A stretch of DNA of 38,733 nt from Candidatus Woesearchaeota archaeon. Lineage in GTDB: Archaea > Nanobdellota > Nanobdellia > Woesearchaeales > UBA12501. Every line of letters starts with the position of its first letter. Positions within the stretch are counted from its first letter, which is position 1. Below the pieces are notes generated by a model, which was given only the letters and a program-made list of their open reading frames with translations, was not told the origin of the DNA and did no database searches. The DNA lies in the NCBI GenBank assembly GCA_016177345.1, contig JACOVM010000072.1:1-38733 (forward strand), read 5' to 3'. Both the position numbers and the translations under genes were made by a program. This document shows, one piece after another, positions 10,320-34,765 of this stretch.

Positions 10320-10427
10320 TCGGGGAATTTTAATTTTCTAATATTTTTAGGATATTTTCGGAAAATATCTTATTTCTTGGAATAACTTGGATTAGGCCCG
10401 TACTTTTCTCCACATTCTTTGAAAGCC

Positions 10428-10458
10428 TTCCAACTTTTGTTGGGCAGAACATATAAAT
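10428..10458 (+). promoter_or_regulatory. duplicated promoter block, copy 1 (TATA CATATAAA)
   Basis: CTTCCAACTTTTGTTGGGCAGAACATATAAA, with the first ATG (10481) 23 nt after its end. It is near-identical to 10938-10968. Confidence 0.55.
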
Positions 10459-10480
10459 GGCATATCTTGTTTTTTTTCTT

Positions 10481-10693
10481 ATGGAGATTCAGTATACAAC
10501 TCATGCTAAAGAGCAGTTGATGGCAAGAAAAATAATGGAAGTCTGGATTGAGGAAACGATCAAATACCCAACGTACGCTGTACACATTGGCTACAAATAC
10601 TATGCGATCAGAAAACTGAATGGTTTCACGCTCAAAGTCGTTTACACAAAAGAAAACTATATAAAGGTCATCACTGCCTATTTTATATCATGA
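10481..10693 (+). CDS. DUF4258-family putative toxin
   Basis: MEIQYTTHAKEQLMARKI...IKVITAYFIS fits the DUF4258 pattern (HAxxxMxxRxI ... hVITxY). The start is chosen from the promoter spacing, whereas the ORF track begins at 10457. It overlaps the next gene by 4 nt. Confidence 0.7.
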   Translation: MEIQYTTHAKEQLMARKIMEVWIEETIKYPTYAVHIGYKYYAIRKLNGFTLKVVYTKENYIKVITAYFIS

Positions 10694-12630: not shown

Positions 12631-12746
12631 ATTCAGGGCGCCGCCATGGTTTACGTTGAAAGCTCTCTTTTTCTCCCCACCCTGCCCGGGCGAGGTGGGG
12701 AGAAAAAGAGACCTAAACTTTGTTTAAGCACAGCGGCGCCCTGAAT
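12631..12746. repeat. intergenic compound hairpin (outer 14-bp GC stem, ~20-nt symmetric internal loop, perfect 17-bp polypyrimidine/polypurine stem)
   Basis: Outer stem: ATTCAGGGCGCCGC 12631-12644 pairs with GCGGCGCCCTGAAT 12733-12746. Inner stem: CTCTTTTTCTCCCCACC 12665-12681 pairs with GGTGGGGAGAAAAAGAG 12694-12710, with a 12-nt loop. Confidence 0.7.
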
Positions 12747-14254: not shown

Positions 14255-15190
14255 TCACAAAAGTGCATGGTGTTTCACCTCGATACCATTGCTGATCAGT
14301 TCTTTATGAACTTGAAGCGCGTGCTTTCCCTGCTCTATCATATTCTTGACGAAGCTGAAGGCGATGTTGTGCAAGCCATTTTGTGCAGGTGCAGCTGGCG
14401 TGATGAAGGAGCTGCCTAGTCCTGCAATATCGTTGCTGGTTATGGCTTCGAGCCATGCCATCTCAAAGGCGAAGGCCTTGGCTTCTTCGTCGTGCCCGTC
14501 ATGGAGTGTGGGGGTCATGACATGGCCAAGCTCGTGGCCAATGGTGAGCATGAGCTGGTCGAGTGGATTTTCTTTTACGATCACAATTCTGAATCCTGGA
14601 TTGTTGATGGAAAATCCTTGGAGTCCTGCTGATGGCTTGCCGCCAAAATCATTGTGCTTTTCCTGCAGCTCTTCTTCTGAAACAACGCTGATGACAATGT
14701 CTCCGGGAAGCTTTTTTCCAGTAACTGCAGTAAATGCTTGTTTGATATAATGCTGAATGTCATGCCCTTTTCCGATGAATCGTGCAGTCGGCCGGTGCGG
14801 GTCAAGGAAGCTTACTGTTGAATGGTATTCTGGATGGGAATGGGCAGTCCAATGGTAGTGTCGTCCTGCAATTGAACCAGTTGAATCTCCCGCCCCGTAT
14901 CCTATTTCGGGAGATGAGTATCTTCCTGAGCCTGCTGATACCGTTGACTCAAGTCTCTGTCTTAGACTAGGACTTTGGTCTGGTATAGATCGGGAAAAGG
15001 AAACCTCGACTGCAGTATCAAGGGCATAGGTTTGAAACGTCTGAGACGCCCGGTCCATGCTGCCGATGCTTCGTTCCAGCATGCTGTAGCTTAGGGTTGG
15101 CGAAAGAGCCATACTTCCAGCTGGGAAAAAGCCGGATGGGCTTCCAAAGCCTCCTTGGCTGACGTATCCACTATGTGACAGGTATGCCAT
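14255..15190 (-). CDS. putative zinc metallopeptidase (HExxH)
   Basis: LTIGHELGHVMTP...EEAKAFAFE gives HExxH plus a downstream Glu. There is no signal peptide, and the N-terminal third is S/G-rich. Confidence 0.7.
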   Translation of the reverse strand: MAYLSHSGYVSQGGFGSPSGFFPAGSMALSPTLSYSMLERSIGSMDRASQTFQTYALDTAVEVSFSRSIPDQSPSLRQRLESTVSAGSGRYSSPEIGYGAGDSTGSIAGRHYHWTAHSHPEYHSTVSFLDPHRPTARFIGKGHDIQHYIKQAFTAVTGKKLPGDIVISVVSEEELQEKHNDFGGKPSAGLQGFSINNPGFRIVIVKENPLDQLMLTIGHELGHVMTPTLHDGHDEEAKAFAFEMAWLEAITSNDIAGLGSSFITPAAPAQNGLHNIAFSFVKNMIEQGKHALQVHKELISNGIEVKHHALL

Positions 15191-15329
15191 ACAGTGGAGT
15201 ATAATGCAGAGATCTATTTAAAGAAGCGTGGGGTGAAGAAGAATGGAGTGGGACAAAAAGGTCATGGTTGTGTTAGTTGTAGCACCCTAGCCCATTTTGT
15301 CACCACTTATTAGTTATAAAAAACGAAAG

Positions 15330-15338
15330 TTTTAAATA
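15330..15338 (+). promoter_or_regulatory. TATA-like box (TTTTAAATA) for the GHKL operon
   Basis: Lies 14-23 nt upstream of the candidate ATGs at 15352 and 15361. Confidence 0.45.
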
Positions 15339-15351
15339 GTACATCTTGGTT

Positions 15352-17847
15352 ATGCCTGTTATGATCCCTCGCAGGCTGCTCGAATGGCTCGCTAAGCCAT
15401 TGCAAAAGCAAGAAATTGCTCAGTACGTTAAGCTCCCCTCTCTTTTTGTTGTAGAAGATTTAGAGGTAGCTAACGAGCTGCGCCACAAGGTTGATCCGCG
15501 AGAGTACCTTATTGTTCATGATCCATCCCTCATCAATCATCCTGATGCAAGCTATCCTTCTCATCCACGAATTGCGGGAAAGCGTCGTGAAGGCATTCTT
15601 GTTCGAGGGAAAAATCTGAGCCATAACATGGCAGGCCTGTATCTGCGCCAGCATTCTTCGTCCCAAAGCCCAGAGGCAGCACTTCGATCTCTTGAAGAAA
15701 GCGTCATGGAAACTTCCGCTAAAACCCAGCAGAATATGCAGTCCTTAGAGTCAGCTGCAAGGTCTCTGCTCACGGAGCACGGAGACAATGAGGGCAATGT
15801 AGGTTATGATCAAGCCCAATTGATGGCTCTCATTCATGATATTACTGTTGCCCAGTTCGAATACCCGGAGCATTTTATTCGAGAAGCAGTCCAGAACGCT
15901 GACGGTGCATGGCAGAACAAGCTCGAAAATCGCATTGACGTCTTTATCGATAGAAAAAATAGGACCATCAGAGTAGCAGACAAAGGCAGAGGAATGGACA
16001 AGCCTGTGGTAGAGAATGCTTTTTTCAATTTGTACGCCTCATTAAACGAAGCATTATCCTACGCTGCAGGAAAATTTGGGATCGGCGCTGTCAGTTTCTT
16101 TGGGCTCAAGCATGACCATGTTCGAATTGACACGAAGCAAGAAGAGGGCGACGCTATCAGTGTTCTTGTTGATGGCCAATTACAGAGAGAGTATGTTCCG
16201 AGCACGCAGCACGAGCGCGGAACAACGGTAGAGATCAAGCTGGCAGGCGATTCACCCATTGATTTTGATAAGATTGTTGAAATCCTTCGAGAAGACTGCT
16301 GCTATATCGAAACCCCGACCTACCTTCACGATAATGGAACAACAGAATTCATAAACAAGGAATTAACCCCGGAAGGGGTGCAAAACACGGTCGGCTTTTC
16401 AGAGAAAAATGTTCAAGGATATGTTCGCCTTGGCTCCGGTGAATTGAAATTGCTCTCTCACCGAATCAGGCTGCGCAGCATTCCAACTGTTGGCTATTCT
16501 GGCGTTGTCAATTGTGCAGGATTAGATACTACTTTTTCACGAGACACCGTGCTTGATGACCCGGTACTTCGTGATGTTCTTCGTTATGTGAATATTAAGC
16601 AGGCTGATCTTCGCCGAAAAGCCCTTGACAATAACAAGCTTTCCTTAGAGGCGCGATTGAATGATTACCAGGAATTTCTCCACAGCAGATTTTTTGATGG
16701 AAATGGGGTAAATGCCCAGTTTCTTCGGGCTCATGCACAATCCATCCTCTATGGGTCTCGCTTTCAAGAATATACCTGGGAGAAAATGAGTGAGCAGTCA
16801 ACTAGTGTCCAGTCCGGCTTTGGTCTTCGGCCAGCAGGATACCTTTTTGGATACGCTCACGCTATTGGCTCAACAATGCTTCAGTGGGCTAGAAAAAAAC
16901 TGGGGATAAAACAGTATGCCCTGGTATGTCACACAGGTGATATGAGTTGGACAAAACGCGAAGTCATAGATGCTAGGTCATTTCATGATCGTTTGCCATC
17001 CACCACTAGTGATGTTGGCGAGGCTGGATTTGCAGGGCTATTTCTTTCTACAGTGACTACTCTCTTAGGCGGTGCTGCGGCGTATGGGCTCACCAAAGAT
17101 GGAAGATGTTTTGCCCCGTTAGGCGTGATGGTGGCATACGATGTGGTATGTGCGGCAGAATCTGCTGCCAGAATCGGTTATCACATGGGGAAAGAATTGG
17201 TGAAGAAAGCCTTTGTTCACCACGCTAATCACACATTATACGGAAGCTATATTCCTGGTGCAGAAGCTGATACCAAAACTGCAAAGTCTATTGCTGGCGT
17301 AGCATTAGGTCTTGCTGGAATTGGCGGATTATTGTGGGGTGTGCCGTATGTTATCTCTCATCTTAGTACACCAGATACTCCATCAGTAAGCCAACCGAAA
17401 AATATTGAAGAGCGAGCTGAAGAACCAAAAGAGCACTCAAGGCAGGCTCCTCAGCCAACACCGCAGCATGGAGAACAGGATAGCGATATTCCATACGAGC
17501 TCCCTCTCGGCATTGCCTTTGGCACTGGCCTTGCCATGACCGGATTTCTTCATCACCGAAATAAGAGGAGAATGCTTCAGCCCTATACTGACTCGTTAAC
17601 TGCTGACGAGCAAAAACTGCTCGATGGCGTTCAGGAGTCATTAGGGGCTCTTCCAACTCATGTTCCAGTTTATTATGGCAGCAATCTTGGCCGAGACCAC
17701 CCCGCATTTTTAGTAACGAGGCGTGGCATTATCTTGAACAGGACAAGAAAAGAGGGAATAGAACCAGCCATGCCAGCCTTAGCCTATGCCAGCACAATAT
17801 TAAAAGATGCATCCTTATCTGATCGCATCGCGGAGAAACTATCATGA
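15352..17847 (+). CDS. HSP90/HtpG-like GHKL ATPase with a C-terminal multi-TM region
   Basis: N box REAVQNADGA, G1 box ADKGRGMD and G2 box GKFGIGAVSFFG (compare HSP90 GQFGVGFYS). Four or more hydrophobic helices follow after about aa 560. The ORF-track start (15346) is TTG, so ATG 15352 or 15361 is more plausible. Confidence 0.8.
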   Translation: MPVMIPRRLLEWLAKPLQKQEIAQYVKLPSLFVVEDLEVANELRHKVDPREYLIVHDPSLINHPDASYPSHPRIAGKRREGILVRGKNLSHNMAGLYLRQHSSSQSPEAALRSLEESVMETSAKTQQNMQSLESAARSLLTEHGDNEGNVGYDQAQLMALIHDITVAQFEYPEHFIREAVQNADGAWQNKLENRIDVFIDRKNRTIRVADKGRGMDKPVVENAFFNLYASLNEALSYAAGKFGIGAVSFFGLKHDHVRIDTKQEEGDAISVLVDGQLQREYVPSTQHERGTTVEIKLAGDSPIDFDKIVEILREDCCYIETPTYLHDNGTTEFINKELTPEGVQNTVGFSEKNVQGYVRLGSGELKLLSHRIRLRSIPTVGYSGVVNCAGLDTTFSRDTVLDDPVLRDVLRYVNIKQADLRRKALDNNKLSLEARLNDYQEFLHSRFFDGNGVNAQFLRAHAQSILYGSRFQEYTWEKMSEQSTSVQSGFGLRPAGYLFGYAHAIGSTMLQWARKKLGIKQYALVCHTGDMSWTKREVIDARSFHDRLPSTTSDVGEAGFAGLFLSTVTTLLGGAAAYGLTKDGRCFAPLGVMVAYDVVCAAESAARIGYHMGKELVKKAFVHHANHTLYGSYIPGAEADTKTAKSIAGVALGLAGIGGLLWGVPYVISHLSTPDTPSVSQPKNIEERAEEPKEHSRQAPQPTPQHGEQDSDIPYELPLGIAFGTGLAMTGFLHHRNKRRMLQPYTDSLTADEQKLLDGVQESLGALPTHVPVYYGSNLGRDHPAFLVTRRGIILNRTRKEGIEPAMPALAYASTILKDASLSDRIAEKLS

Positions 17848-20183
17848 AACAGTTCGCATTTCGGGTTTCCTTGACAGACATGATTCGAAAGCTTCGCTAT
17901 AGATACGATAATCCTATTGATTATCTTGGCACATTTGTCGATGCGCTGTACGTGCCAGGTGTTGCTGTCGATATTGCTGTTGATGCGGAAAAGATAGAAT
18001 TGAAATCCCCAGCAAAGCTTGATGGCAAGCTGATAGAAGCGCTTGAGCAGCACAATCTTCTTGCCATGGCATCGCTTCTTCCGCCGGTGCAAGAGTACGA
18101 AGAGGTTACGATCAAGTCCGGTGAGAAAAGAGTTGTCATCGGGGCTGATAGAAAAGTCCATGTTCATTCTTCAGCTGATTCTAAGACAGCAACAGGGGAG
18201 CAGGAAGGGGGGCAGGATCCTGATACGAAGGCTGATGCCAATGTTAATGGCACTCATGTTGTTATCCGCCGAAAAGACGGCGATGGAAAAGCACAGCAAG
18301 CAGAACTGGAACGCGTTTGTGACCTCTACAAAGGATCTGATCTTGCAGTAACTGTCCAGGGCAAGTCAGAAACAAAAGATGCAAGAACAGCTGCAATGGG
18401 CTTTGATCGTGATGGCTTCCGCGGATCAGTATGGTACGCGCCAACAAAAAATGGGGGCATCCACTACTTTCACCGAGGTCGGTTCGTCAATAGTGAAGAT
18501 GCTGTTGCCGGCGTTAATATCTGCTTGTATAATCATCCATTTCAGCCAACGGTAACAAAATCAAGAATGATCACCCGGGGAAGGGCAAAGGAACATCACG
18601 AAAAGCTCCAGCAGATCATTCCAGGTATTCTTCTTGATTACCTAACCTCCCCTCAAATTGAAACGCTTCGCAAGGAATCTGAGCGGTCGTACCAGACACT
18701 ATTGAGAAGTATTGCACGGCGTTATATGGGCCATGACGTTATTCTTGAACACGTTGAACAAAACCTTCTCTTTCCTAATGACGATGGGGACTACACCCTT
18801 CATCTTCATGAGGTAGACGCCCCAAAAAATGGGGATGCTGAATTGTGGAAGGCCTTGACCGGGAATGACCTTCCCGACAAGAGCCAGTCAAGACATTCAT
18901 CTGGCGTACGGGCATTGGCATTAGGGGTTGCGCTGACGTCACTTGTTGCTTTTGGCAGTGGCTTATATGTCATGGTTTCTGGTGCGTCAAAAGAAAGCGC
19001 TGTTGACATTTCAACCATCCTTGGTTGTGCTGATGAAAAAACAGTTGGTAACATAGCTACTGCAAATCATTTCCAGATCTCCATGAACCGTGGCGCTGAC
19101 TTTATGACAAGAGAAGAGCTTGCTAAATACTTAAGCGACTATCAAAGGGAGATCAACAAGCTCATTGCATCACAGTTCTCTCTTGATCTTCTTTCGAAAA
19201 GTGGGTATGTTCGTTTTTCAGTAGGTGATAATCTTAGTTGTTTGGGTGGCCAAATCGTTTGGCGTGACATGGCTGGATCTGATACCTCTTTTTTTGTTCA
19301 GCACTGTGATACTCCTCTTCCTGTAGAACTCCAAAAATATCGTACTGCTGATCTTGATGATAAGCTTGATGCTGTTGCTGATTTCATGCAGAACAATTTT
19401 AAATATGACAGTATTCCCCCAGAAGTTGCTGCAAGGTATGCCAGCCAGCTCGAGGCAATCGCAACAGAGCGCCGGGCAGTATGTTATGGATTAAACTCGT
19501 ACGCCGGTATCCTTCTGTCAAAGTTGGGTGTTAGAATGGACGTAAGGGGTGTCGGTGGTATTCTCAATGGTATGCCTCACTTCTGGCTTGAAGTGAATGA
19601 AGGAACACCTTGGAAGCAAGACTGGCAGGTATATGACTTCAGCGGCTCTCCGATGGCACCAGAGCTTGCTGAACAAATGGAAGACTTAGCCATGCCCCTC
19701 TCTGCTGCACTTTTAGGGCCGCTTGCTCTTGCGCAGAACAACATATCTATGCCGGGGTTAACCCAACAGCTTTCTGGAGCATATGATGAACTTACAAACC
19801 ACCCGTTACAGGTGTTGTCTCTGACTGGCGGCCAGCTCATGGCTGCATCACTATTCCTTTTAGGCGGGCTTGGTGTTGGCCTTGGGGTCCAGTATGCTCT
19901 TCGAAAAACAGGGCGTGCTGTTGAACGAAGCTCCAAAGCCCCATCATGGCAGCCTCAAGGCGCGTATCATCAGCAGTGCCTTCAGCTTCGAGACCTTCTT
20001 GGAGTGGATGGCGTGGTCATCGGGCCTGACGTGAAGTATGATGGAACAACCCTTCAGGTTCCTGTCGATTATGTGAGGGCAAATCTTATCCCCCAGGCTA
20101 TTAAGTTAGTTCCAGTTGTTGCGCAGGATGATAAGGATAAGATTTCTCTCTACAATAGAATCGTGGAGGTCGTGCGGAGATAA
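17844..20183 (+). CDS. membrane protein with a transglutaminase-like (Cys-His-Asp) domain
   Basis: Overlaps the upstream stop by 4 nt (ATGA). VCYGLNSYAGILLSKLGVRMDVRGV...MPHFWLEVNEG...WQVYDFSG (nt ~19470-19650) matches the transglutaminase-core C...H...D spacing. Predicted TM helices flank this domain. Confidence 0.75.
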   Translation: MKQFAFRVSLTDMIRKLRYRYDNPIDYLGTFVDALYVPGVAVDIAVDAEKIELKSPAKLDGKLIEALEQHNLLAMASLLPPVQEYEEVTIKSGEKRVVIGADRKVHVHSSADSKTATGEQEGGQDPDTKADANVNGTHVVIRRKDGDGKAQQAELERVCDLYKGSDLAVTVQGKSETKDARTAAMGFDRDGFRGSVWYAPTKNGGIHYFHRGRFVNSEDAVAGVNICLYNHPFQPTVTKSRMITRGRAKEHHEKLQQIIPGILLDYLTSPQIETLRKESERSYQTLLRSIARRYMGHDVILEHVEQNLLFPNDDGDYTLHLHEVDAPKNGDAELWKALTGNDLPDKSQSRHSSGVRALALGVALTSLVAFGSGLYVMVSGASKESAVDISTILGCADEKTVGNIATANHFQISMNRGADFMTREELAKYLSDYQREINKLIASQFSLDLLSKSGYVRFSVGDNLSCLGGQIVWRDMAGSDTSFFVQHCDTPLPVELQKYRTADLDDKLDAVADFMQNNFKYDSIPPEVAARYASQLEAIATERRAVCYGLNSYAGILLSKLGVRMDVRGVGGILNGMPHFWLEVNEGTPWKQDWQVYDFSGSPMAPELAEQMEDLAMPLSAALLGPLALAQNNISMPGLTQQLSGAYDELTNHPLQVLSLTGGQLMAASLFLLGGLGVGLGVQYALRKTGRAVERSSKAPSWQPQGAYHQQCLQLRDLLGVDGVVIGPDVKYDGTTLQVPVDYVRANLIPQAIKLVPVVAQDDKDKISLYNRIVEVVRR

Positions 20184-24893: not shown

Positions 24894-24996
24894 GCGTAAA
24901 CGCACAGCAATTACAATGCGATTCCTTTTTTCTTGCTCCATACTTATCGAGGAGCAAGAAAAAAGGACTGGTTGTTCATTTCAATAGCGTTTACGC
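24894..24996. repeat. intergenic compound hairpin with the same architecture as 12631..12746
   Basis: Outer stem: GCGTAAACGC 24894-24903 pairs with GCGTTTACGC 24987-24996. There are 19-nt internal loops on both sides. Inner stem (perfect 17 bp): TCCTTTTTTCTTGCTCC 24923-24939 pairs with GGAGCAAGAAAAAAGGA 24951-24967, with an 11-nt loop. Confidence 0.7.
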
Positions 24997-27105: not shown

Positions 27106-28050
27106 TCAGCTCGGCCCATTCGTCACAACATATTCCCTCATTCTCTTGCGGAGGATACTAAATGAACGTTCGCTTTGCTCTTTTCTGTCACCGCGCTCGT
27201 GCTTGCGGTACTCGAAAGGCCCGTGCCTTATCATATCAGACGTGCTTCTTCCAAGCCAGTACATGTTCCATTGTTCTCGTTCAGGCCGAGGATCCTGGAA
27301 GAAGAGCTGGATTGGATTGGTGTCCAGCGCGTCCATAATCCATGCATTGTATGGTTCAAGATCTTGAGAGACAAGAAGCTGGTATGCCACAGTAAGTAAA
27401 TTGCAGATATCGGGATCTGCGCTGACAATTCGCACTGGCCGTCGTGGAAAATGAATTGCAGCAAATACTGCATCGGTAACAAGGCGTTCATCTGCTTCTG
27501 GTTCAGCATAAAAGACAGGCGGTTGCGCCTCATCAGGCCTTACTTTCTTGACTCGGCCTTTGTATTCTATCTTGACGATAAGGCGGTGTAGTTCTTTATG
27601 TTGCTGCTGGAGTTCTGGTGTACTTCCAGGGCGAAATTCAGCCGCACTTAAGTACATGGAAAGCAGTTGTCGGTACCATGCCTTAAGTGCAGTTTCTTCG
27701 TCGAGAGAATGATCTGGCGGTATGCCGAGCCTGTTGACTTTATCAACGTCAAGCTGAGTTAGTTTTTCGCTGAGCACGAGGTCTGCTCTTGTCAATTCAT
27801 GGGCAACTCCGCTGCTGATCAGCACGTGAGGGTGTGAGAGTACTTGTTCAAGAGCACCATTGAGCTGGAGAAGAGCGGAGATATCATCGCGAAGAAGGTC
27901 TCGATAGGATCCTGCAGTTGCTATTCTTTCAGTAAGTTGATAGGGAAGGAAAACATTCGTATCAAGAAACGTCAGGCCTGGATAATCAACAATACGTTCT
28001 AATGGCTGTAGAAGTTCAGCACCAAAAACTGGCTTTATTGCCGTGTCCAT
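27106..28050 (-). CDS. hypothetical protein with PIN-like acidic motifs and a large insertion
   Basis: FLDTNVF (first Asp), GVAHELT (Glu), RLVTDAVFAAI (Asp) and RIVSADPDI (Asp) occur in the PIN order. About 110 aa are inserted between the second and third elements. This is pattern-level only. Confidence 0.6.
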   Translation of the reverse strand: MDTAIKPVFGAELLQPLERIVDYPGLTFLDTNVFLPYQLTERIATAGSYRDLLRDDISALLQLNGALEQVLSHPHVLISSGVAHELTRADLVLSEKLTQLDVDKVNRLGIPPDHSLDEETALKAWYRQLLSMYLSAAEFRPGSTPELQQQHKELHRLIVKIEYKGRVKKVRPDEAQPPVFYAEPEADERLVTDAVFAAIHFPRRPVRIVSADPDICNLLTVAYQLLVSQDLEPYNAWIMDALDTNPIQLFFQDPRPEREQWNMYWLGRSTSDMIRHGPFEYRKHERGDRKEQSERSFSILRKRMREYVVTNGPS

Positions 28051-28228
28051 CTTGTGCGGAGATATTTATGCCTTTTAATGCCTTGCCTTTAGTGTGTGAT
28101 ACGTAGCGGATTCAGGCGCGTCCTGATATTTTAGTTTATTTTATCTATTTTCTAGCCTATCTTACCTGCCTGTCTTCTTGAATTTGATAAGTTGTCCTAT
28201 ATTATATTCCATATAGAAAATAATATTA

Positions 28229-28317
28229 CAAAAAGAAATCCTGACTCTCGACGGAGGCCCTTGTGAGGGTACTTTACCAAGCTTGGCGCTTTGGTGAAGT
28301 ATCAGGATTTCTTTTTG
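28229..28317. repeat. 89-nt compound hairpin at the left edge of the foreign island
   Basis: A perfect 16-bp outer stem: CAAAAAGAAATCCTGA 28229-28244 pairs with TCAGGATTTCTTTTTG 28302-28317. The inner hairpin TACTTTACCAA 28270-28280 pairs with TTGGTGAAGTA 28291-28301, with one T:G on the + strand. Confidence 0.7.
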
Positions 28318-28346
28318 TGGTCATTTCGTCGTAAGGCAGCTCCTTT

Positions 28347-28547
28347 CTAGTGGATGGCGAGGATATCAACCCTCTCAAGGACAAGTTCGTACCCCTGGCG
28401 TCCTTGCTTGATTCCCCTCACCATCCAAGCCCTGTTCGTGCCACTCATCGGAGTCAGGAATTGCTCTACGAACTCCTTGACTGCAGGATGGTGGTCTACT
28501 TCATGCTGGTCTCGAGCAATCGTTCTGCACAGGTCACAAGTGCACAT
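28347..28547 (-). CDS. small hypothetical protein (66 aa, N-terminal CxCxxC)
   Basis: MCTCDLCRTIARDQHEVDHHP.... AGGAG lies upstream of the ATG but only 2 nt away, which is suboptimal spacing. It sits at the distal end of the island. Confidence 0.35.
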   Translation of the reverse strand: MCTCDLCRTIARDQHEVDHHPAVKEFVEQFLTPMSGTNRAWMVRGIKQGRQGYELVLERVDILAIH

Positions 28548-29493
28548 AGCTCCTAGTTCCGTGGGCTTCTACTACGTTGGGCTTCTTTACTTCGCTTGCT
28601 TTCTTGTTTTTCCTTTCGTTCTTGTTCTTTACTGTACATCATCTACTTCAACAAGGTACGGGACCACCGAATGCGTACGCGGTGCGCTTAGGGGGAAAAA
28701 AGTACGCACTCGATGGTCCCGGTTTGGAGGGAACAACACTGTGTCGACAGCGCCATACTAAAGCTGGTGTTTTCTTTAGTTGTCGCACATCTTCACTGGA
28801 ACACCAACATGAGTAATAACTCCCCCATACTCATGGTTCCCTCCTGGCGTTCTGGATATGGTGACCGTTCACGCAATGCAACCCTTCTCCTCGGAGAAAC
28901 AACATCAGGATTACGTGAACGGTCATAAGGCAGCACCTGTTTTTTGGGTTGAACAACGACCAGCATACAGCGGTTGGCTGGACAGGTGCTGCCAACGAGG
29001 CCATCGAACCTGATAAAAGAGCCGCCCCTCCCCCTGGAAAAGATGGCGTTTTATCACCTCTGCTCGATGGCCTCGTAATCTGTTAATCTTCATCTTCTGG
29101 CCTGAGGGGCAACCAAGTCGGCTTTACGGAATTGGTAATGCACCTCGCTTGCTATAGGTTTAGGTTTTATCTTGGTTGCCCTAGGAGACTGCACCTGTCC
29201 AGGAAGATGACCCCCTGTATTCGTCATACCTAGACAGGTGCAGCCTACGAGACCATCGAACCCGCGACCGAAGGGTAGGTTATTGCGCAGGGATACGAGC
29301 TCGATGGCCTCGTAAAGCGGCTGTCCACGGCAAGAGGTGAAGCCCATAGCCTCGAGCACATGGACAGCCGCCGAGCGCTTTCCAAAGGAGACGGCAAGTA
29401 ACCATTGGCGGCGCTCTCTAAGGAAGACAGCAGGTGTTCCTCACTGAGGCTCTGGATTGAGGCCAGCATCATTGAGGGTGATGCCAACAACAC

Positions 29494-29595
29494 CTGCCGC
29501 CAGAGGAGCCCTCGACCTTACGCAGTAAAGCGCAATGCACGTTAATCCCTCGGGAAGATCGGCCGTGCAAGATTGGTCGAGGGCTCATCTGGAGT
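29494..29595. repeat. long hairpin repeat, copy 1 (downstream of the 481-aa ORF)
   Basis: The left arm CTGCCGCCAGAGGAGCCCTCGAC (29494-29516) and right arm TGGTCGAGGGCTCATCTGGAGT (29574-29595) form an 18-bp stem (29500-29517 / 29575-29592) with one G:A mismatch. Confidence 0.8.
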
Positions 29596-29926
29596 TTAGC
29601 ATGTTAGTGGGATGACTGCGGCAGGCACAGGCCAGTGAGCGCCCTCCCAGGACACCGGTTGTCTGTACCTGCCGCAGTCGGGCACAGTCATCATCCACGC
29701 GGGCAAGGGTTGGTGGTGATGACTGCTGGTTGTAGAGGCAAGTGAGGCGCTTGCCGAGAAGCGACAATTTGCTTGGGGCCAAGCCTTTGTCGTCCTGGAA
29801 GCGCCTCACCTGCGGTGCCTGCCGAAACGCATTACGTTCGCGTTTCACTCTTTCGTCTTAAGGGCGCACACCCGTCAGACGACGCATGGCAGGACTTTCA
29901 TGGCAACGCGGCAAGAGTAGGTAGGG

Positions 29927-29994
29927 GCCTCGGGCCACGATCTCATGCTCTTTCTAACTTCTTCTAGAAAGAGAATCAGATCGTGACCCGAGGC
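29927..29994 (-). terminator. long two-tier hairpin just 3' of the 481-aa ORF (terminator or processing candidate)
   Basis: A 17-bp stem (29927-29943 / 29978-29994, one G:U on the minus strand) encloses a 9-bp stem (29948-29956 / 29965-29973). No T-run follows it on the minus strand. Confidence 0.35.
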
Positions 29995-30004
29995 TTGGGG
30001 AGAA

Positions 30005-30016
30005 CTAGCTAGCTAG
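30005..30016. other. CTAGCTAGCTAG block (stop codon in all six frames)
   Basis: Three tandem palindromic CTAG units give TAG in each frame on both strands. The block lies 15 nt downstream of the ORF's own TAG (30034..30032). Confidence 0.9.
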
Positions 30017-30031
30017 CCGATGGTGGGCTGA

Positions 30032-31477
30032 CTAGGCGTTCTGCGGGGCGTGCTGCGCATCCTCGAACTCGAAGCCAGCGGCGAGCTGGAACTGCTCGAC
30101 GGGGATTCCGCGGATCGCGACGATCTGGCCGAAGGCGTTCCGCAGGGCGGCCTGGTCCTCGAGCTGTTCGGCGATCTGGGAGGCCACGCGGCGGACGTAG
30201 GTCTTCGGGTCCGTCACGTTCACCTTCATGATGCCGATGTTGAACGAGTTCAGGGCGACGTTGCGCAGGAAGCGCACGGTGCCGTCCTGTTCGATCTCGT
30301 TCTGCTCGAAGCCCAGCGCCTGGCAGATCTCCTCGACGATCTCCTGCTTGAACGGCGAGATCGCCAGGTGGATCCACTGCACCAGGGAGGCGAAGGCCTG
30401 CTGCTGCTTCCGGAGGTACCGCGGCGAGATCCACTGGCCCAGCAGGTAGATCGCCACGCCGACGTAGCCGTGGTTCTCCTTGCCGAACTGGATGGTCGCC
30501 TTGTTCTGGTCCTTCGTCAGCTCGGCCTTCACAGCGAAGAGGAACTTCTCGTAGCGGCCGTACTTGTCCATCTTCACCGGCGTGCCATCGCTGTCCGTGG
30601 GCTGGAAGCCCGACGGCGTGAGGTAGTCGGTGAAGGGGGTGGGGCTCTTCGTCGTGGCATGCGGCACCTTGAAGCCCAGGCCCTCGAGGCAGCTCTGGAC
30701 CGTGGCGATGGTGCCGGTGTTGCCGTTGAGGAGGACGACGCACGACTGGTCGATGCCGCAGTCGTTCGCCATCCAGCTCAGCGGGTTGTACGGCACGTAC
30801 ACCTCGATGCTGGTGAGCTCGCCGACGTTGTTGAAAGCCGCGAACGGCCGCACGTCGAACTTGCCCAGCTTCGCGTCACGGTAGTAGCCGCCGCTCATCC
30901 CGATGACCTGGGTGAGAAGCTCCCGCATCGCGTTCTGGCTGCCGTTCGTGGCCACGTTGCGCGTCACCGGCTTCTTCTTGCCGTTTGCCAGGTCGGTGGT
31001 CACGACTTCGAGGTGGGGCAGGCCGTCGACCGCGGAGACGAAAGTGGCGTCCTTCCGCTCCTTGGTCGCGGTGATGGTGGTGAGGCCGAGGGACTGGCGA
31101 TCGCCGTAGGTCTTGGACATCGCCTCCTGGATGGCGGTGATGTTGTCGCCGAAGGCCACGATGACACCGTCCTCCGAGGCGATGCTCGCCGGGTGGGGGA
31201 GAACGTTGCCATCCTGGAGGAGCTGCAGGCGGAACTGCTGGTCCGGCGTGAGGCCGTGCGACTTCGGGGGCTGCCGGTTGCCGGTGAAGGCCGCCATGAT
31301 CAGCTCCGAGGTGACCTGCTCTTCGGGGATGCCCAGCTCGCTGGCGATGGCCTGCTTGACGTTCGCATGGATCGTCGCCTTCTGCTGGGGGTTGAAGCCG
31401 TACTGCGTGATGTTGCGGAGGTTGCTCTGGGTACGCATGTAGCGTTTCCTTTCGAACTGCATTTGCTGCTTTTCCAC
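30032..31477 (-). CDS. hypothetical protein, GC3-saturated, family not recognised (start uncertain: GTG 31477, ATG 31462 or ATG 31438)
   Basis: This is the only one of the overlapping long ORFs here whose translation looks like a natural protein (balanced K/N/I/F/Q/D/E). 31 of its last 34 codons end in G or C. The antisense and out-of-frame ORFs are R/L/G/D/A/P-rich, as expected for shadows of a high-GC gene. Confidence 0.75.
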   Translation of the reverse strand: MEKQQMQFERKRYMRTQSNLRNITQYGFNPQQKATIHANVKQAIASELGIPEEQVTSELIMAAFTGNRQPPKSHGLTPDQQFRLQLLQDGNVLPHPASIASEDGVIVAFGDNITAIQEAMSKTYGDRQSLGLTTITATKERKDATFVSAVDGLPHLEVVTTDLANGKKKPVTRNVATNGSQNAMRELLTQVIGMSGGYYRDAKLGKFDVRPFAAFNNVGELTSIEVYVPYNPLSWMANDCGIDQSCVVLLNGNTGTIATVQSCLEGLGFKVPHATTKSPTPFTDYLTPSGFQPTDSDGTPVKMDKYGRYEKFLFAVKAELTKDQNKATIQFGKENHGYVGVAIYLLGQWISPRYLRKQQQAFASLVQWIHLAISPFKQEIVEEICQALGFEQNEIEQDGTVRFLRNVALNSFNIGIMKVNVTDPKTYVRRVASQIAEQLEDQAALRNAFGQIVAIRGIPVEQFQLAAGFEFEDAQHAPQNA

Positions 31478-31591
31478 CGCTAACTTCCAAAGCGGAAGCC
31501 CCTCCTGGATTTAATAGCAGTGGTGGAGACGACAGCTGCGTTTTCACGTCTTTTCACATCAATTCTTGCTTCTTATTCACCTACTGTGCAG

Positions 31592-31675
31592 CTGCCGCCA
31601 GATGAGCCCTCGACACGTTGCTTCCCGGTGCATGGCACTGGTGTGGGGAGAGCTGGTCGAGGGCTCATCTGGAGT
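31592..31675. repeat. long hairpin repeat, copy 2 (upstream of the 481-aa ORF)
   Basis: The left arm CTGCCGCCAGATGAGCCCTCGAC (31592-31614) and right arm TGGTCGAGGGCTCATCTGGAGT (31654-31675) form a perfect 17-bp stem (31598-31614 / 31656-31672). The arms match copy 1, but the loop differs. Confidence 0.8.
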
Positions 31676-31732
31676 GGGCTTCGTGAAGACAGCCCGAGAA
31701 GTACTACGGGGGGAAACTGAGGGGGTTGAGGA

Positions 31733-31930
31733 CTAGGTTGCGGGTTCGCTCTTGTCAGCACTCGTCACCTGGATCACGGTGGGGGTGACGACCTGATCAG
31801 GGCTGGGCGGCCAGGCCTGCGTCGTGGGCTCGAAGCGGGTCTGCCGTGCTTGGGTGCCGAGCGGGTTGGTCAACAAGTTGTTGAGCCACGATCCACTGGG
31901 CTGCTTCTTGTCAGGCGGCCTCGGAAGCAT
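31733..31930 (-). CDS. small Pro/Thr/Gln-rich hypothetical protein (65 aa)
   Basis: ATG 31930 is preceded by AAGGAGG with a 5-nt spacer (ACAAGGAGGTTCTGATG). It overlaps the upstream small ORF by 20 nt. Confidence 0.4.
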   Translation of the reverse strand: MLPRPPDKKQPSGSWLNNLLTNPLGTQARQTRFEPTTQAWPPSPDQVVTPTVIQVTSADKSEPAT

Positions 31931-32123
31931 CAGAACCTCCTTGTTCAGCCTTCTTCGCATTCATTCGCTGCAAAGCGATGGCGAGCTGGTTGAAGCCGCT
32001 GGACTTCGGGGTTGAAGAGGGCGTCTCGGTCACATCCTTGCTTCCGTCGCTTCCCTTGATGCCATCTCTGGATGCGTACTCGGTAGCCATGATGTGAGCG
32101 AATTCATCCGTTCGAACCTTCAC
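31911..32123 (-). CDS. small hypothetical protein (about 70 aa; start uncertain)
   Basis: GTG 32123 is preceded by TAGGAG with a 5-nt spacer. The alternative start is ATG 32090 (MATEYASRDG...). Confidence 0.35.
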   Translation of the reverse strand: MKVRTDEFAHIMATEYASRDGIKGSDGSKDVTETPSSTPKSSGFNQLAIALQRMNAKKAEQGGSDASEAA

Positions 32124-32292
32124 GCGATCTCCTACGAACAATAACAGTTTTACAGTTTTCAACGGAGCCTTACTACAGGGTTTTCCACGGTTCTCCGTCG
32201 TGACCAGTGGAAAAGGGCTTCTTCTCGAGAATACAACCTACATTAAACTACATCGCACTCGTCCTACACGCTATCTGTTTCAGAAAACAGGC

Positions 32293-34179
32293 TTATGAAA
32301 GCGTGCGTCCACGTGTTTCAGGGTTTTCCAAGAGAAGAGCTCCGCTAGGCGTTATGTGAATAATCTTCACCATACCTTTTTCGCTTCGCACTTCTTCTAC
32401 AGAAATTAACCCCAAATCTACCAATGACAGCTTTAGTTCGTTTCCTTTGCGGATTGACAAACAAAGTTGTTTGTAGATTTGCGTGGTGGCTAGATAGCCG
32501 GAATTTTGGCGTAGGGTTGCCAAAAATTCATGTTGTTGGTTGGTTAAGTTGTAGGAAAGGGATATTGGAATGGAGGTATCTTTATCGTTATCATCATCAC
32601 TAGCAACAGCAACATTATCATCATAAGTATTATCATGAACAATGCCTTCTGCGTGCTCTTGAATGTTTCGCAATGTTTCAACGTCATCGTTTGTTGCCAC
32701 TCTGCTGAGCTTGAATACCTTGTCCAGCTTTTCGAGCTGCCGCTGGAGCTTTTCTGTATCGCATGACTCTTGAAAATGCTTAAGCCTGCGATGGTCTTTA
32801 GCCTTTCCTTTCATCAGGGTGGAAAGCGCATCATCAGTGATGATATTCTTCTTGACGTCAATAAACGGTGCCTTGATGAGGAAAGGATTGTAGAATCGCT
32901 CTGCTAATTTTACAATTGCGCTGCCGACCGGGAGCATGGAGAAGTATTTTCGCTGCTCGCGCATTTGCATGAGGTTGGAGACACATTCTACATCTGCTGG
33001 AAGGATCTGCTGGAAAGCTATGTTGCAGGCAGAATTTCCGGCAACCGTGTCGCTGAGCTTAGAAATGTGCTGGTCGAGGCAGATTAAGCTAACGCCATAT
33101 TCCCGGATTTCCCGGTAAATCATATCGGTGATGCTTTCGGTGAGGAAGTTTGGCTTTTCTTTGAGAAAAATGTTGTGGGCCTCGTCAACAATGATGGCGA
33201 GCCTAAACTTGTTGCTTTCGTAGTTGTTTGCTTTCATCAGCTTGTACAGGTAGGTCAGGAAGAAGCTGGTGAAGAATTTTTTCTCGCTCGTGCCAAGATT
33301 ATGGAGTTCAAAGACCACTTGCTTATCCATAATCTCTTCAACAGTGTACGCGTCTTCTCCCTTGTAATTGATCGCCTCACCGAAGTCTCCATAGGTAAGG
33401 GAGGAGGCGATTCGAAGAGCGCTTTCAAGCCATTCTGATTCTCGGCCATGGCGCCGCGCACTCATATCTGCTTCATAATCTTCAAGGCGATCTTTGACTT
33501 GGTGCCAGGTTGGATAATTCTCGCTGCCTTCATAGACGCCAAAGTCCTTAAATGCCCTATCGAGTGTTTCGCGCAGCAGCTTATGGACGCCGAAGCTTGC
33601 AAAGAATGCGTCATTGATCAGATCGCACAAAATGTTAATCCATTCCTTCGCCCCAATATTTTTTGGTGGGCGATTAATGTTGAGCTTGAAGTGGTTGCTG
33701 ACTCGTTCGTTGCCGACAGTAAAGCAGTGAACGCTTTTGTCTTTATTCATGAGCTGGCGAAAGCTTTTCTTCCAATCAAATGCGATGAAAGGCTTTCTCT
33801 TCATGACAAAATTGCCGAGAAGATGGAATGCAAAGGTTGTTTTTCCGCTGCCGCTCATGCCAGAGATGCAGACGTGTCTTGGCCAGTCATTTTCCCGCAG
33901 CCCAAATTCATACAGGTTTGTTTTGGCGTACAAGATCGTGCCGAGAGGATATTCTCCTGCCACGACACCTTGCCTTGGTGGCTCAAGCATGATGTCCTCA
34001 TCAGAAAGAAGGCCTTTGTTGAGGTACTTGTGGTAGAGGGAATGAAGCGCTTGCTCAATTTCGATCTTGCTCTCCACTGAATCAGCAAGGCGGTACTTGA
34101 GATAGATCTGGTCGATTTTCTCGCCGAAGACTGGCTTCAGCTTCTTGCAGACTTCCTCGGTAGTGAGCGCACGTTCCAT
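32293..34179 (-). CDS. HerA/FtsK-superfamily (DUF87-like) P-loop ATPase with a C-terminal winged-helix-like domain
   Basis: Walker A is ISGMSGSGKTT and Walker B is RLAIIVDEAHN, followed by LICLDQH. The last ~90 aa (EFLATLRQNSGYLATTQIYKQL...) look wHTH-like. Confidence 0.8.
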   Translation of the reverse strand: MERALTTEEVCKKLKPVFGEKIDQIYLKYRLADSVESKIEIEQALHSLYHKYLNKGLLSDEDIMLEPPRQGVVAGEYPLGTILYAKTNLYEFGLRENDWPRHVCISGMSGSGKTTFAFHLLGNFVMKRKPFIAFDWKKSFRQLMNKDKSVHCFTVGNERVSNHFKLNINRPPKNIGAKEWINILCDLINDAFFASFGVHKLLRETLDRAFKDFGVYEGSENYPTWHQVKDRLEDYEADMSARRHGRESEWLESALRIASSLTYGDFGEAINYKGEDAYTVEEIMDKQVVFELHNLGTSEKKFFTSFFLTYLYKLMKANNYESNKFRLAIIVDEAHNIFLKEKPNFLTESITDMIYREIREYGVSLICLDQHISKLSDTVAGNSACNIAFQQILPADVECVSNLMQMREQRKYFSMLPVGSAIVKLAERFYNPFLIKAPFIDVKKNIITDDALSTLMKGKAKDHRRLKHFQESCDTEKLQRQLEKLDKVFKLSRVATNDDVETLRNIQEHAEGIVHDNTYDDNVAVASDDDNDKDTSIPISLSYNLTNQQHEFLATLRQNSGYLATTQIYKQLCLSIRKGNELKLSLVDLGLISVEEVRSEKGMVKIIHITPSGALLLENPETRGRTLS

Positions 34180-34261
34180 GGTGTTTTTCTTTTTACTATC
34201 TTTTTTCTATCTATTTTTATTTTCTATATTTTATCTTTTCTATGTGATTATTGTTAGCTAA

Positions 34262-34765
34262 TCATTGTGTTAATATCTTGTCAAGCATGTCAAGCCTGCT
34301 TTCTTTTTCCTTGAATTCCTTGACTCGCTCGCGCAGCTCGTTCTTGAGTTTGGCAATGTCCTTCCAGTTTTCTACTTCTTCTTCGATCATAAACCGCTCA
34401 AGCTCGATCTGCTTTGTTTTAAGGTTGAGAAGGTCGTGCTTGAGTGATGCATCGTCGTTGCTGGTTGCGCTGAGCTGCAGCTCAAGATTATTGAACGTGT
34501 TTAGCATCTTCTCAATTTTTTTTGAGATTTGAGAGGTGAGATCATCTCTTTTTTTGATGAGGTCTTCAATGTCCTCAATGACGCCTTTGATGGAATCAAC
34601 TTTTACGGTCTTGAGTGATTGAAACACGTCATCTTTCAGCTCGTCTTTTGAAGAATAAGAAGAACGCTTCGTGGATGCGAAAGAAGATTCTACTGTCTGA
34701 TAAACTTTTCTATGGTCCTTCCCCAATAAGTCAAGGACTTCCAACTCTGGAATTCTTTCTGTCAT
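34262..34765 (-). CDS. coiled-coil protein upstream of the HerA-like ATPase
   Basis: 167-aa ORF with long heptad-like K/E/L/D-rich stretches. It is on the same strand, with an 82-nt gap to the ATPase gene. Confidence 0.65.
   Translation of the reverse strand: MTERIPELEVLDLLGKDHRKVYQTVESSFASTKRSSYSSKDELKDDVFQSLKTVKVDSIKGVIEDIEDLIKKRDDLTSQISKKIEKMLNTFNNLELQLSATSNDDASLKHDLLNLKTKQIELERFMIEEEVENWKDIAKLKNELRERVKEFKEKESRLDMLDKILTQ

Follow-up and report, generated by a model that had tools for sequence, protein, structure and literature searches.

Hairpins that follow a stop codon or lie between two cistrons, that act on one strand at the RNA level and that occur several in tandem have been described before. 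For instance, the REP/BIME clusters (repetitive extragenic palindromes and bacterial interspersed mosaic elements), such as the malE-malF REPs, and the 'positive retroregulator' of the Bacillus thuringiensis cry genes have been proposed to block 3'-to-5' decay and to set differential expression within operons. REPs are units of about 35 nt that belong to one sequence family, are present in hundreds of dispersed copies and are linked to RAYT transposases. The array of hairpins dealt with here shares their position, strand-specificity and tandem arrangement. It is located on the minus strand, at 28659-29994, of a 38,733-nt contig (JACOVM010000072.1, assembly GCA_016177345.1) of a Candidatus Woesearchaeota archaeon; this contig constitutes the whole stretch of DNA analysed (the window, 38.7 kb), and the array lies downstream of an orphan gene. 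Unlike REPs, its hairpins are 43-119 nt long, mostly unique in sequence and apparently not dispersed, 17 of them stand in a row over 1.3 kb, and the organism is an archaeon. Archaeal 3' untranslated regions (UTRs) are normally short.

Other described elements resemble the array in part. The flavivirus 3' UTR, with its exonuclease-resistant RNAs (xrRNAs) and dumbbells, and the RNase III hairpins of the T7 early genes act as nuclease barriers or processing sites. Like the array, these are long UTR or intergenic RNAs made of duplicated stem-loop modules in which the structure is kept while the sequence drifts. However, these elements are characterised by a defined tertiary fold or a bulged RNase III site and number two to five per RNA, whereas the array is composed of simple near-perfect hairpins with no recognised fold and in many more copies. 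The OLE, GOLLD, ROOL, HEARO and raiA RNAs (about 0.6-1.3 kb) also show strong predicted structure and come from uncultivated lineages or mobile contexts, but they are multi-domain molecules with long-range helices, while the array is a succession of local hairpins, presumably on a messenger RNA (mRNA), with no Rfam match. In polycistronic microRNA clusters, hairpins of about 60-90 nt stand back to back, each with 25-35 near-perfect pairs; these clusters belong, however, to a eukaryotic pathway, and in the window no processing enzymes were found among the open reading frames (ORFs) scanned and the model matches were far below threshold. The attC sites and CALIN clusters consist of imperfect palindromes, about 60-140 nt in length, folded in a single DNA strand; they conserve structure more than sequence and lie beside variable genes (PMC9668308). 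The array resembles them in these respects but lacks R-box core motifs and cassettes between its sites, and no integrase was found among the scanned ORFs. The kind of element to which it would belong, cis-acting hairpin arrays of mRNAs, is thus already known; the present array is represented by one complete example and its function is proposed from the sequence.

Structure and strand of the array

The structure of the array is real, far beyond chance, and consists of a string of independent local hairpins. In a span-limited fold of the minus strand, 17 consecutive hairpins (H2-H18) extend from 29994 down to 28659, each with 14-38 pairs, at spacings of 0-24 nt, six of the junctions measuring 0-1 nt. 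A weak stem at the stop codon of the orphan gene (H1) is not counted among the 17. The original prediction, made from the letters of the sequence, had described long back-to-back stems in this region, and all of them were found, either exactly or within 1-3 nt. An independent exact-stem scan recovered as perfect stems of at least 10 bp those at 28862-28873/28914-28925, 28929-28940/28982-28993, 28995-29007/29064-29076, 29107-29117/29171-29181, 29189-29199/29233-29243, 29317-29327/29361-29371, 29506-29517/29575-29586, 29614-29625/29668-29679 and 29742-29752/29799-29809; the remaining ones were recovered in the minus-strand fold. These nine stems compare with a mean of 0.12 and a maximum of 2 in 1000 dinucleotide shuffles, and stems of at least 8 bp number 21 compared with 2.0 in the shuffles. 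The stem density is 6.7 per kb in the array and 0.43 per kb elsewhere in the window, a 16-fold difference. Both strands were folded and compared with dinucleotide shuffles, which are the reference for all the z-scores given below. The two halves of the array reached z-scores of -12.3 and -10.5 on the minus strand and of -6.0 and -8.2 on the plus strand, far below the shuffles and more strongly on the minus strand, whereas four control regions of the window gave values from -0.5 to -4.1.

The same array was assembled independently, with zero differences inside it, in three other assemblies (two Logan assemblies and one metagenome-assembled genome (MAG) from NCBI; L008, L009 and L010), and it is therefore not an assembly artefact. 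Paired positions have a GC content of 0.60, whereas unpaired positions, at 0.45, are at the level of the host, which argues against a regional GC-biased process; GC-biased gene conversion was rejected on the same grounds as the source of the GC content of the array. A very large structured non-coding RNA had also been suggested. The strong structure on which that suggestion was based is real, but it is distributed over local hairpins instead of forming a single global fold, and it matches no Rfam family.

The individual hairpins differ in size and strength. Following the minus strand, the first one, H2 (29927-29994), has 68 nt and 29 pairs, a z-score of -10.2 (-9.0 on the plus strand) and the 5' arm GCCUCGGGUCACGA. 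H3 (29818-29925; 108 nt) is branched and the weakest of the set (z -1.5). It is followed by H4 (29738-29813; 76 nt, 32 pairs; z -7.7), H5 (29684-29726; 43 nt, 15 pairs; z -4.5) and H6 (29614-29679; 66 nt, 27 pairs; z -7.3). H7 (29500-29592; 93 nt, 35 pairs; z -7.9) is a paralogue of a hairpin situated upstream of the orphan gene, called Hup, with which it shares the stem (family C) and a GGCGGCAG flank. H8 (29428-29499; 72 nt, 28 pairs; z -3.6) adjoins H7 with zero gap and precedes H9 (29373-29416; 44 nt, 14 pairs; z -3.0) and H10 (29316-29372; 57 nt, 20 pairs; z -5.5). H11 (29246-29314; 69 nt; z -5.8) carries a stem of family A, with a CCAUCGAG core, and is paralogous to H14 and H18, while H12 (29187-29245; 59 nt; z -7.9) carries a stem of family B (GCACCUGUC) and is paralogous to H15. 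After H13 (29101-29185; 85 nt, 26 pairs; z -2.8) come H14 (28995-29076; 82 nt, 34 pairs; z -6.3; family A), H15 (28929-28993; 65 nt; z -4.1; family B) and H16 (28862-28925; 64 nt, 24 pairs; z -5.3). H17 (28726-28844; 119 nt; z -3.4) is branched and has a 9-bp closing stem. The last hairpin, H18 (28659-28721; 63 nt, 23 pairs; z -8.5), has the family A core, and its loop carries the only U6 run of the array.

With respect to the strand, four A:C positions within otherwise perfect plus-strand stems had been interpreted as G:U pairs of a minus-strand RNA. When only Watson-Crick pairs were allowed in the fold, 17 isolated 1x1 stem mismatches were obtained; nine are G:U on the minus strand, the four positions being all among them, and none is A:C on the minus strand (that is, G:U on the plus strand). 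Folding energy favours the minus strand for 12 of the 17 hairpins, with totals of -615 kcal/mol (minus) and -556 kcal/mol (plus). In the second half of the array the shuffle means are -249 for the minus strand and -263 for the plus strand, so that composition alone favours the plus strand. AT and GC skews within the array are near zero, and a strong strand-biased mutation pressure is therefore unlikely. The total number of G:U pairs in unrestricted folds is similar for both strands (43 vs 47); the asymmetry rests, therefore, on the isolated mismatches of long stems and on the energy difference. The minus-strand preference is thus borne out, the minus strand being the sense strand of the flanking ORFs. 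The further proposal, that selection acts on an RNA and not on DNA cruciforms, holds in part: the G:U asymmetry argues against double-stranded cruciforms, but an RNA and single-stranded DNA of that strand cannot be told apart by it. Under DNA parameters the two strands differ by only 11 kcal/mol (-333 vs -322).

The array is not a degraded protein gene, a possibility that had been raised together with the original prediction. The three-base GC periodicity of the orphan gene ends exactly at its stop codon, each frame of the array contains 9-20 stops, tblastn comparisons with the neighbouring proteins gave nothing better than E 0.5, and the gene callers of three assemblies made zero calls within it. 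Its position between two ORFs and its non-coding nature are established.

Known non-coding elements were also sought. Rfam 15, applied to the whole window at gathering thresholds, as had been proposed, gave zero matches; at E up to 10, region 28000-32400 yielded only generic microRNA-precursor matches of 17-31 bits (thresholds 62-100) on both strands. A scan for tRNA and tmRNA found none. Tandem Repeats Finder reported nothing in the array, where direct repeats are only two-copy and irregularly spaced; a tandem repeat was rejected for this reason, a CRISPR array by the lack of constant-length direct repeats at regular spacing, and a ToxI-like RNA of a type III toxin-antitoxin system because there are no tandem repeats and PADLOC matched only the HerA-type ATPase among the neighbours. 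No RYYYAAC...GTTRRRY pairs 45-150 nt apart exist on either strand, and each strand gave one stray match. An integron attC/CALIN array was rejected on the basis of these missing R-box pairs, the 0-24-nt gaps without cassettes and the lack of Pfam integrases among the scanned ORFs. A terminator scan detected a single weak site, located inside H14, and nothing behind any of the hairpins. Ordinary intrinsic or oligo-T terminators were rejected since no U run stands behind any hairpin of the array, and the terminator-like element of this region is located outside, at 28228-28318. A dispersed MITE (miniature inverted-repeat transposable element) or REP was considered unlikely because the sole copy outside the array in the 38.7 kb is Hup and a scan of JGI metagenomes with the family C arm found only the orthologous locus. 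No RAYT (Y1/HUH) transposase turned up among the scanned ORFs of at least 150 aa.

Duplication and conservation of the hairpins

The array grew by local duplication, the stems being kept while the interiors diverged. The H11-H12 unit duplicates H14-H15 (the 33-nt junction is 88% identical), and H18 has the core of family A, which thus groups H11, H14 and H18; family B comprises H12 and H15, and family C comprises Hup and H7. In the latter, stem and 3' flank are alike but the interior is wholly different. Three compensatory pairs between paralogues were read straight from the folds: H18 differs from H14 by one change from A-U to G-C and another from G-C to A-U, and H12 differs from H15 by a change from A-U to U-A. 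Of the other stem changes among paralogues, three are wobble changes and one is disruptive.

Part of the structure is also conserved in other genomes. The first approximately 58 nt past the stop codon, which include the H1 stem and the 5' arm of H2, are about 70% identical between the window and a 1.4-kb Logan contig (L001) that carries a relative of the orphan gene at 101-1369, although the two proteins are only about 25% identical. The H2 arm reads GCCUCGGGUCACGA in the window and GCCUCGAGCCACGA in L001, which ends there. Hup is nearly identical in three close-strain relatives of the window locus (L004 and L005, which are Rifle populations, and L012). In a Woesearchaeota MAG contig (L002, GCA_016180035.1; relative's gene at 10001-10683), the Hup stem persists, two of its pairs having changed in a compensatory way (one C-G to A-U, the other C-G to U-A); the arms are GAGCCCUCGAC/GUCGAGGGCUC in the window and GAGCCAUUGAC/GUCAAUGGCUC in L002, where Hup is followed, as in the window, by a GGCRGCAGCUGC motif.

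Covariation, which had been put forward as a check of the original prediction, amounts to these limited compensatory changes between paralogous and orthologous hairpins. It has been reported that template switching during replication can make stems and apparent compensation in one event (PMC8794818). For this reason, the compensation between paralogues is supportive but not decisive.

The orphan gene and its surroundings

The gene preceding the array is contained in a mechanical ORF of 481 aa (30032-31477, minus strand). Its real start is probably the ATG at 31438, which gives a protein of 468 aa (P0001), because in close relatives the first 13 codons contain both a stop and an indel. The GC content by codon position is 0.60/0.39/0.95, while that of third positions (GC3) is 0.42-0.54 in neighbouring genes. 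Codon choice is extreme: GGC is used 32 times and GGG once, AGA is never used, and AAG is used 25 times compared with one AAA. The amino-acid composition of the protein is that of a mid-GC organism. A fully open antisense ORF of 477 aa (30050-31483, plus strand) is a by-product of the third-position GC bias.

When 1.84 billion representatives were searched in full with HMMER, just two relatives of the protein emerged, one of 422 aa on L001 and one truncated, of 228 aa, in L002. The proteins are 25-37% identical, and GC3 is 0.91 in L001 and 0.93 in L002, although the host genomes have 45-52% GC. The genes for EF-1alpha, thermosome and ribosomal proteins at other Woesearchaeota loci show no raised GC3; as such highly expressed genes of related lineages are free of the bias, selection for expression of the ordinary kind is no obvious explanation, and ordinary translational selection was rejected. 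No match to the orphan protein was found in Pfam, PHROGs, PADLOC or NCBIfam, and a profile search of PDB sequences found nothing. AlphaFold models reached a predicted local distance difference test (pLDDT) of 36 with the single sequence and of 32 with a 3-sequence alignment, too poor for a fold search.

The gene is also hypervariable. In the close strains the flanks are about 85% identical in DNA and the ATPase 94% identical, and the first approximately 75 residues of the orphan protein are kept, after which identity falls to about 40%. The similarity of about 85% over 6 kb of flanks breaks off about 270 nt into the gene (31167-31438, compared with L004, L005 and L012). Related contigs from four data sets all end inside the gene, which is why the family looks rare and no second array was retrieved.

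Around the gene, all features follow each other on the minus strand. A 167-aa coiled-coil protein and a 628-aa HerA/VirB4/CedB-like ATPase are followed by two small ORFs, Hup, a second stem, the orphan gene, the array, an A-rich leader with AGGAG, a 66-aa ORF, and a long hairpin with a T5 run. The first small ORF past the ATPase (31911-32162; phase-specific GC 0.74) probably starts with the GTG at 32123 (protein VKVR...), and its N-terminus, VKVR.D....TEY..R, is also encoded at 8999-9178 of L002. The second (31733-31960) has 75 aa and a GC3 of 0.80. Hup (31598-31672) has a 17-bp perfect stem, CCAGAUGAGCCCUCGAC; its stem and 3' flank, but not its interior, are those of H7. In the second upstream stem (31528-31599), GGCGGCAGCUGC pairs with GCAGCUGUCGUC, and a GCAGCUG motif is common to the window, L001, L002 and L004. 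The sequence ATTAAATCC at 31507-31515, about 70 nt before the ATG and with the counterpart CTTAAATCC in L002, is possibly an archaeal TATA-like box.

At the end of the gene, the stop codon is followed by CUAGCUAGCUAG (30004-30034), and all three frames are closed ahead of the first long hairpin. Stops in the three frames are contained in CTAGCTAGCTAG (30004-30015, minus strand), right past the stop of the gene, and L001 is alike (TGA.. CTAGGTAG). The small hairpin H1 (30003-30040) extends across the stop codon and has an AGCC/GGCU stem that L001 retains. The array starts 37 nt past the stop codon and ends 110 nt ahead of the 66-aa ORF. The region between (28548-28658) is an A-rich, unstructured leader with AGGAG at its end, before the next ATG. 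The original prediction had seen no convincing ORF downstream; however, this Shine-Dalgarno-like AGGAG site precedes a plausible ORF of 66 aa (28347-28547; MCTCDLC...; GC3 0.63) that is a predicted protein in NCBI nr (P0126). Accordingly, the array would constitute either a 3' UTR or a spacer between cistrons. At 28228-28318, a hairpin with a 17-bp stem is followed by UUUUU and by an AT-rich, promoter-like region before the next gene, and it is likely to mark the end of the transcription unit. Long nested gene-end hairpins with A/T-run-containing stems of 17-18 bp (for instance, TCTCTTTTTCTCCCCACC and TCCTTTTTTCTTGCTCC) are present at 12631-12746, 24894-24996 and 28228-28318, and the three look like bidirectional oligo-T terminators typical of the genome.

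The host is a tiny symbiotic, Woesearchaeota-like archaeon of the DPANN group whose genome has 45% GC, and the closest relatives of the genes of the window come from groundwater MAGs of Candidatus Woesearchaeota and Nanoarchaeota. The pair formed by the ATPase and the coiled-coil protein is widespread, with at least 50% identity in over 850 proteins of these two groups. The ATPase locus (32293-34765, minus strand) comprises the coiled-coil gene, which precedes, and an ATPase with a C-terminal winged-helix region. In distant relatives (L026 and L028), the ATPase closes operons of 12-16 tiny ORFs and is followed by prepilin-like genes (N_methyl, PilX_N), which suggests a Ced-like or type IV secretion system-like or a pilus-related apparatus. 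These distant loci contain neither a GC3-rich gene nor a hairpin array, and no comparable array accompanies the HerA-like homologues on the long contigs L007, L024, L026 and L028. Gene and array therefore occur as a module only in a narrow clade, with an ATPase identity of 72% or more. In L007, a relative with 64% identity, a 1-kb gene-free stretch past the ATPase operon (14623-15623) contains repeated UUUCUCCUCC motifs and is moderately structured, specifically on the sense strand (z -4.6 and -3.6 sense; -1.8 and -0.9 antisense). An integrated replicon, another of the initial suggestions, is unlikely: no replication or integration genes were found, the unpaired GC content is that of the host (0.45), and the same gene order is found by the conserved HerA-like ATPase beside housekeeping genes in a related MAG.

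Further arrays were sought in several collections. The search of genome collections gave only the truncated Woesearchaeota contig. In JGI metagenomes, protein patterns gave nothing, and the H7/Hup arm gave only the orthologous upstream hairpin and 11 chance matches. Viral contigs, phages and plasmids contained no relatives, and cluster members and exact-protein look-ups returned identical copies only.

Other observations concern neighbouring regions. In L002, an intergenic region upstream of the coiled-coil gene (5973-6409) contains AGTTTGGAGTT repeats and an inverted copy (z -4.5 and -3.6). In the window, the 314-aa protein encoded past the terminator (27106-28050, minus strand) shows by eye motifs similar to those of PIN-like nucleases (FLDTNVFL ... 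IVSADPDI), with no Pfam match at E 10. At 15346-20183 (plus strand), an 833-aa GHKL/HATPase-like protein, weakly similar to HtpG, sacsin and Topo VI-B, precedes a 779-aa orphan; this area, in which many ORFs have no family, may be a variable or defence island.

Possible roles of the array

The reading that we favour, tentatively and by analogy, is that the array is a co-transcribed 3' UTR or intercistronic hairpin array that shields or processes mRNA. An extended 3' UTR had already been considered among the original suggestions; position and minus strand fit it, and an intercistronic spacer is allowed by the 66-aa ORF. The array would be transcribed on the minus strand, in a unit that would extend from the small ORFs past the HerA-like ATPase to the hairpin and T5 run at about 28228, and it would constitute a cis-acting RNA tail of 1.3 kb for the orphan gene or a spacer before the 66-aa ORF. 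Its 17 long hairpins could block exonucleolytic decay and possibly serve as endonucleolytic processing sites, thereby lengthening the life of the upstream message and uncoupling it from the downstream cistron. Such a stabilising role is suggested by the REP/BIME and retroregulator hairpins, the T7 RNase III sites and the flavivirus 3' UTR modules. Together with third codon positions poor in A/U and the conserved upstream hairpins, the array could form an RNA 'armour' of this gene family. What is observed is the structure, its strand, its position, its non-coding nature and the partial conservation of the first elements and Hup; transcription and a stabilising or processing role are inferred by analogy.

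Several points weigh against this reading. The transcription of the array is presumed from context only, and for five of the 17 hairpins the plus strand gives a slightly more stable fold. The G:U asymmetry (G:T in DNA) fits single-stranded DNA of the same strand equally well. Seventeen hairpins far exceed the need of any known stabiliser. Were the ATTAAATCC box the promoter, the mRNA of the gene itself would not include Hup. A second complete array was not recovered, every related contig breaking inside the gene. Finally, given template switching, compensatory pairs are weaker proof of selection than usual (PMC8794818).

Different explanations can account for part of these data. The hairpins might be a protein-binding scaffold or a packaging RNA, on which the 468-aa orphan protein or another factor would form a ribonucleoprotein. 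Parallels are the dispersed packaging-signal hairpins of single-stranded RNA viruses and multi-hairpin protein-sponge RNAs. This is unlikely, although it would explain why stem sequences, and not just pairing, are reused in families A, B and C with differing interiors, as would result from sequence-specific recognition of the stem base; the tight stacking of hairpins that adjoin at gaps of 0-4 nt, the fast evolution of the gene, similar to that of a structural or interaction protein, and the adjoining conserved ATPase of the HerA/VirB4/CedB group of nucleic-acid translocases also fit. However, no motif recurs in the majority of loops or stems, k-mer counts show nothing unusual and unique hairpins account for 10 of the 17; neither an RNA-binding nor a capsid domain was found in the protein (Pfam, PHROGs, NCBIfam, PADLOC, PDB sequences), both structure models are unusable, and the viral, phage and plasmid collections hold no relatives. 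A neutral origin, in which local duplication and replication template switching, acting on a gene-free spacer prone to recombination, would have left inverted repeats as functionless by-products, appears distinctly unlikely. The nine-to-zero excess of minus-strand G:U is not expected from a symmetric process at the DNA level, the first elements past the stop codon, like Hup, persist in homologues with a protein identity of 25-37%, the stems are GC-enriched while the loops are at background, and 17 adjoining elements at 16 times the density of the window are hard to reach without retention. On the other hand, template switching yields long perfect stems and apparent compensation in one step (PMC8794818), local duplication is clear (H11-H12 like H14-H15, H7 like Hup), and a single complete example with no common motif and no known family is what such a process could leave.

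The same strand asymmetry is equally expected for folded single-stranded DNA, and the hairpins could be recombination or transposition sites of the minus strand, attC-like or REP/REPIN-like, that would be marks or scars left as the hypervariable gene was repeatedly replaced. In Nanoarchaeota, integrons and attC clusters have been described (PMC9668308). The hairpin sizes overlap the attC range, stems are kept while interiors vary, a copy of the upstream hairpin lies within the downstream array, the gene diverges abruptly from codon ~75 between strains with flanks about 85% identical, and assemblies break at the locus. We nevertheless consider these sites improbable: no hairpin is surrounded by an RYYYAAC...GTTRRRY pair, there are no cassette ORFs between hairpins and no integrase match among the scanned ORFs, Hup is the only copy elsewhere in the 38.7-kb window, and the strand difference is small with DNA parameters. 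Moreover, the element appears not to be dispersed, because the JGI scan with the family C arm found only the orthologous upstream hairpin. A small-RNA precursor, with near-perfect hairpins of 25-35 bp cut, as microRNA clusters are, by a nuclease specific for double strands, is very improbable. Hairpin length, duplex shape and tight tandem packing agree with it, and the only Rfam matches are to microRNA-precursor models (for instance, mir-1258 on H2, E 0.007, 31 bits vs a gathering threshold of 74), but these are far below threshold and on both strands, as any long hairpin would give. No Argonaute/PIWI or RNase III domain was found among the window ORFs scanned, and we know of no small-RNA pathway of that type in DPANN archaea.

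A broader proposal, also improbable, is that the gene and its approximately 19 hairpins constitute a new 'armoured' RNA module of DPANN archaea, in which the array would be a dedicated packaging, export or nuclease-evasion signal instead of a mere stabiliser. A message without A/U at wobble positions and wrapped in hairpins might survive outside ordinary cytoplasmic conditions, for instance, during packaging by its own fast-evolving protein, during hand-over to the host through the HerA/VirB4/CedB-like translocase, or while persisting during an RNase-based defence.

The feature is real, striking, strand-specific and without known family, and it is tied to an orphan gene with two further unexplained properties. 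Since assemblies consistently break at the locus, short-read MAGs systematically under-sample it. The array is linked to a GC3 of 0.91-0.95 in all three known members of a hypervariable orphan family, and both features together point to selection on the RNA itself. Should the array prove to be a functional RNA, no other hairpin array on a prokaryotic message would come near it in size, and it would be the first of its kind reported from DPANN archaea, about whose RNA biology very little is known.

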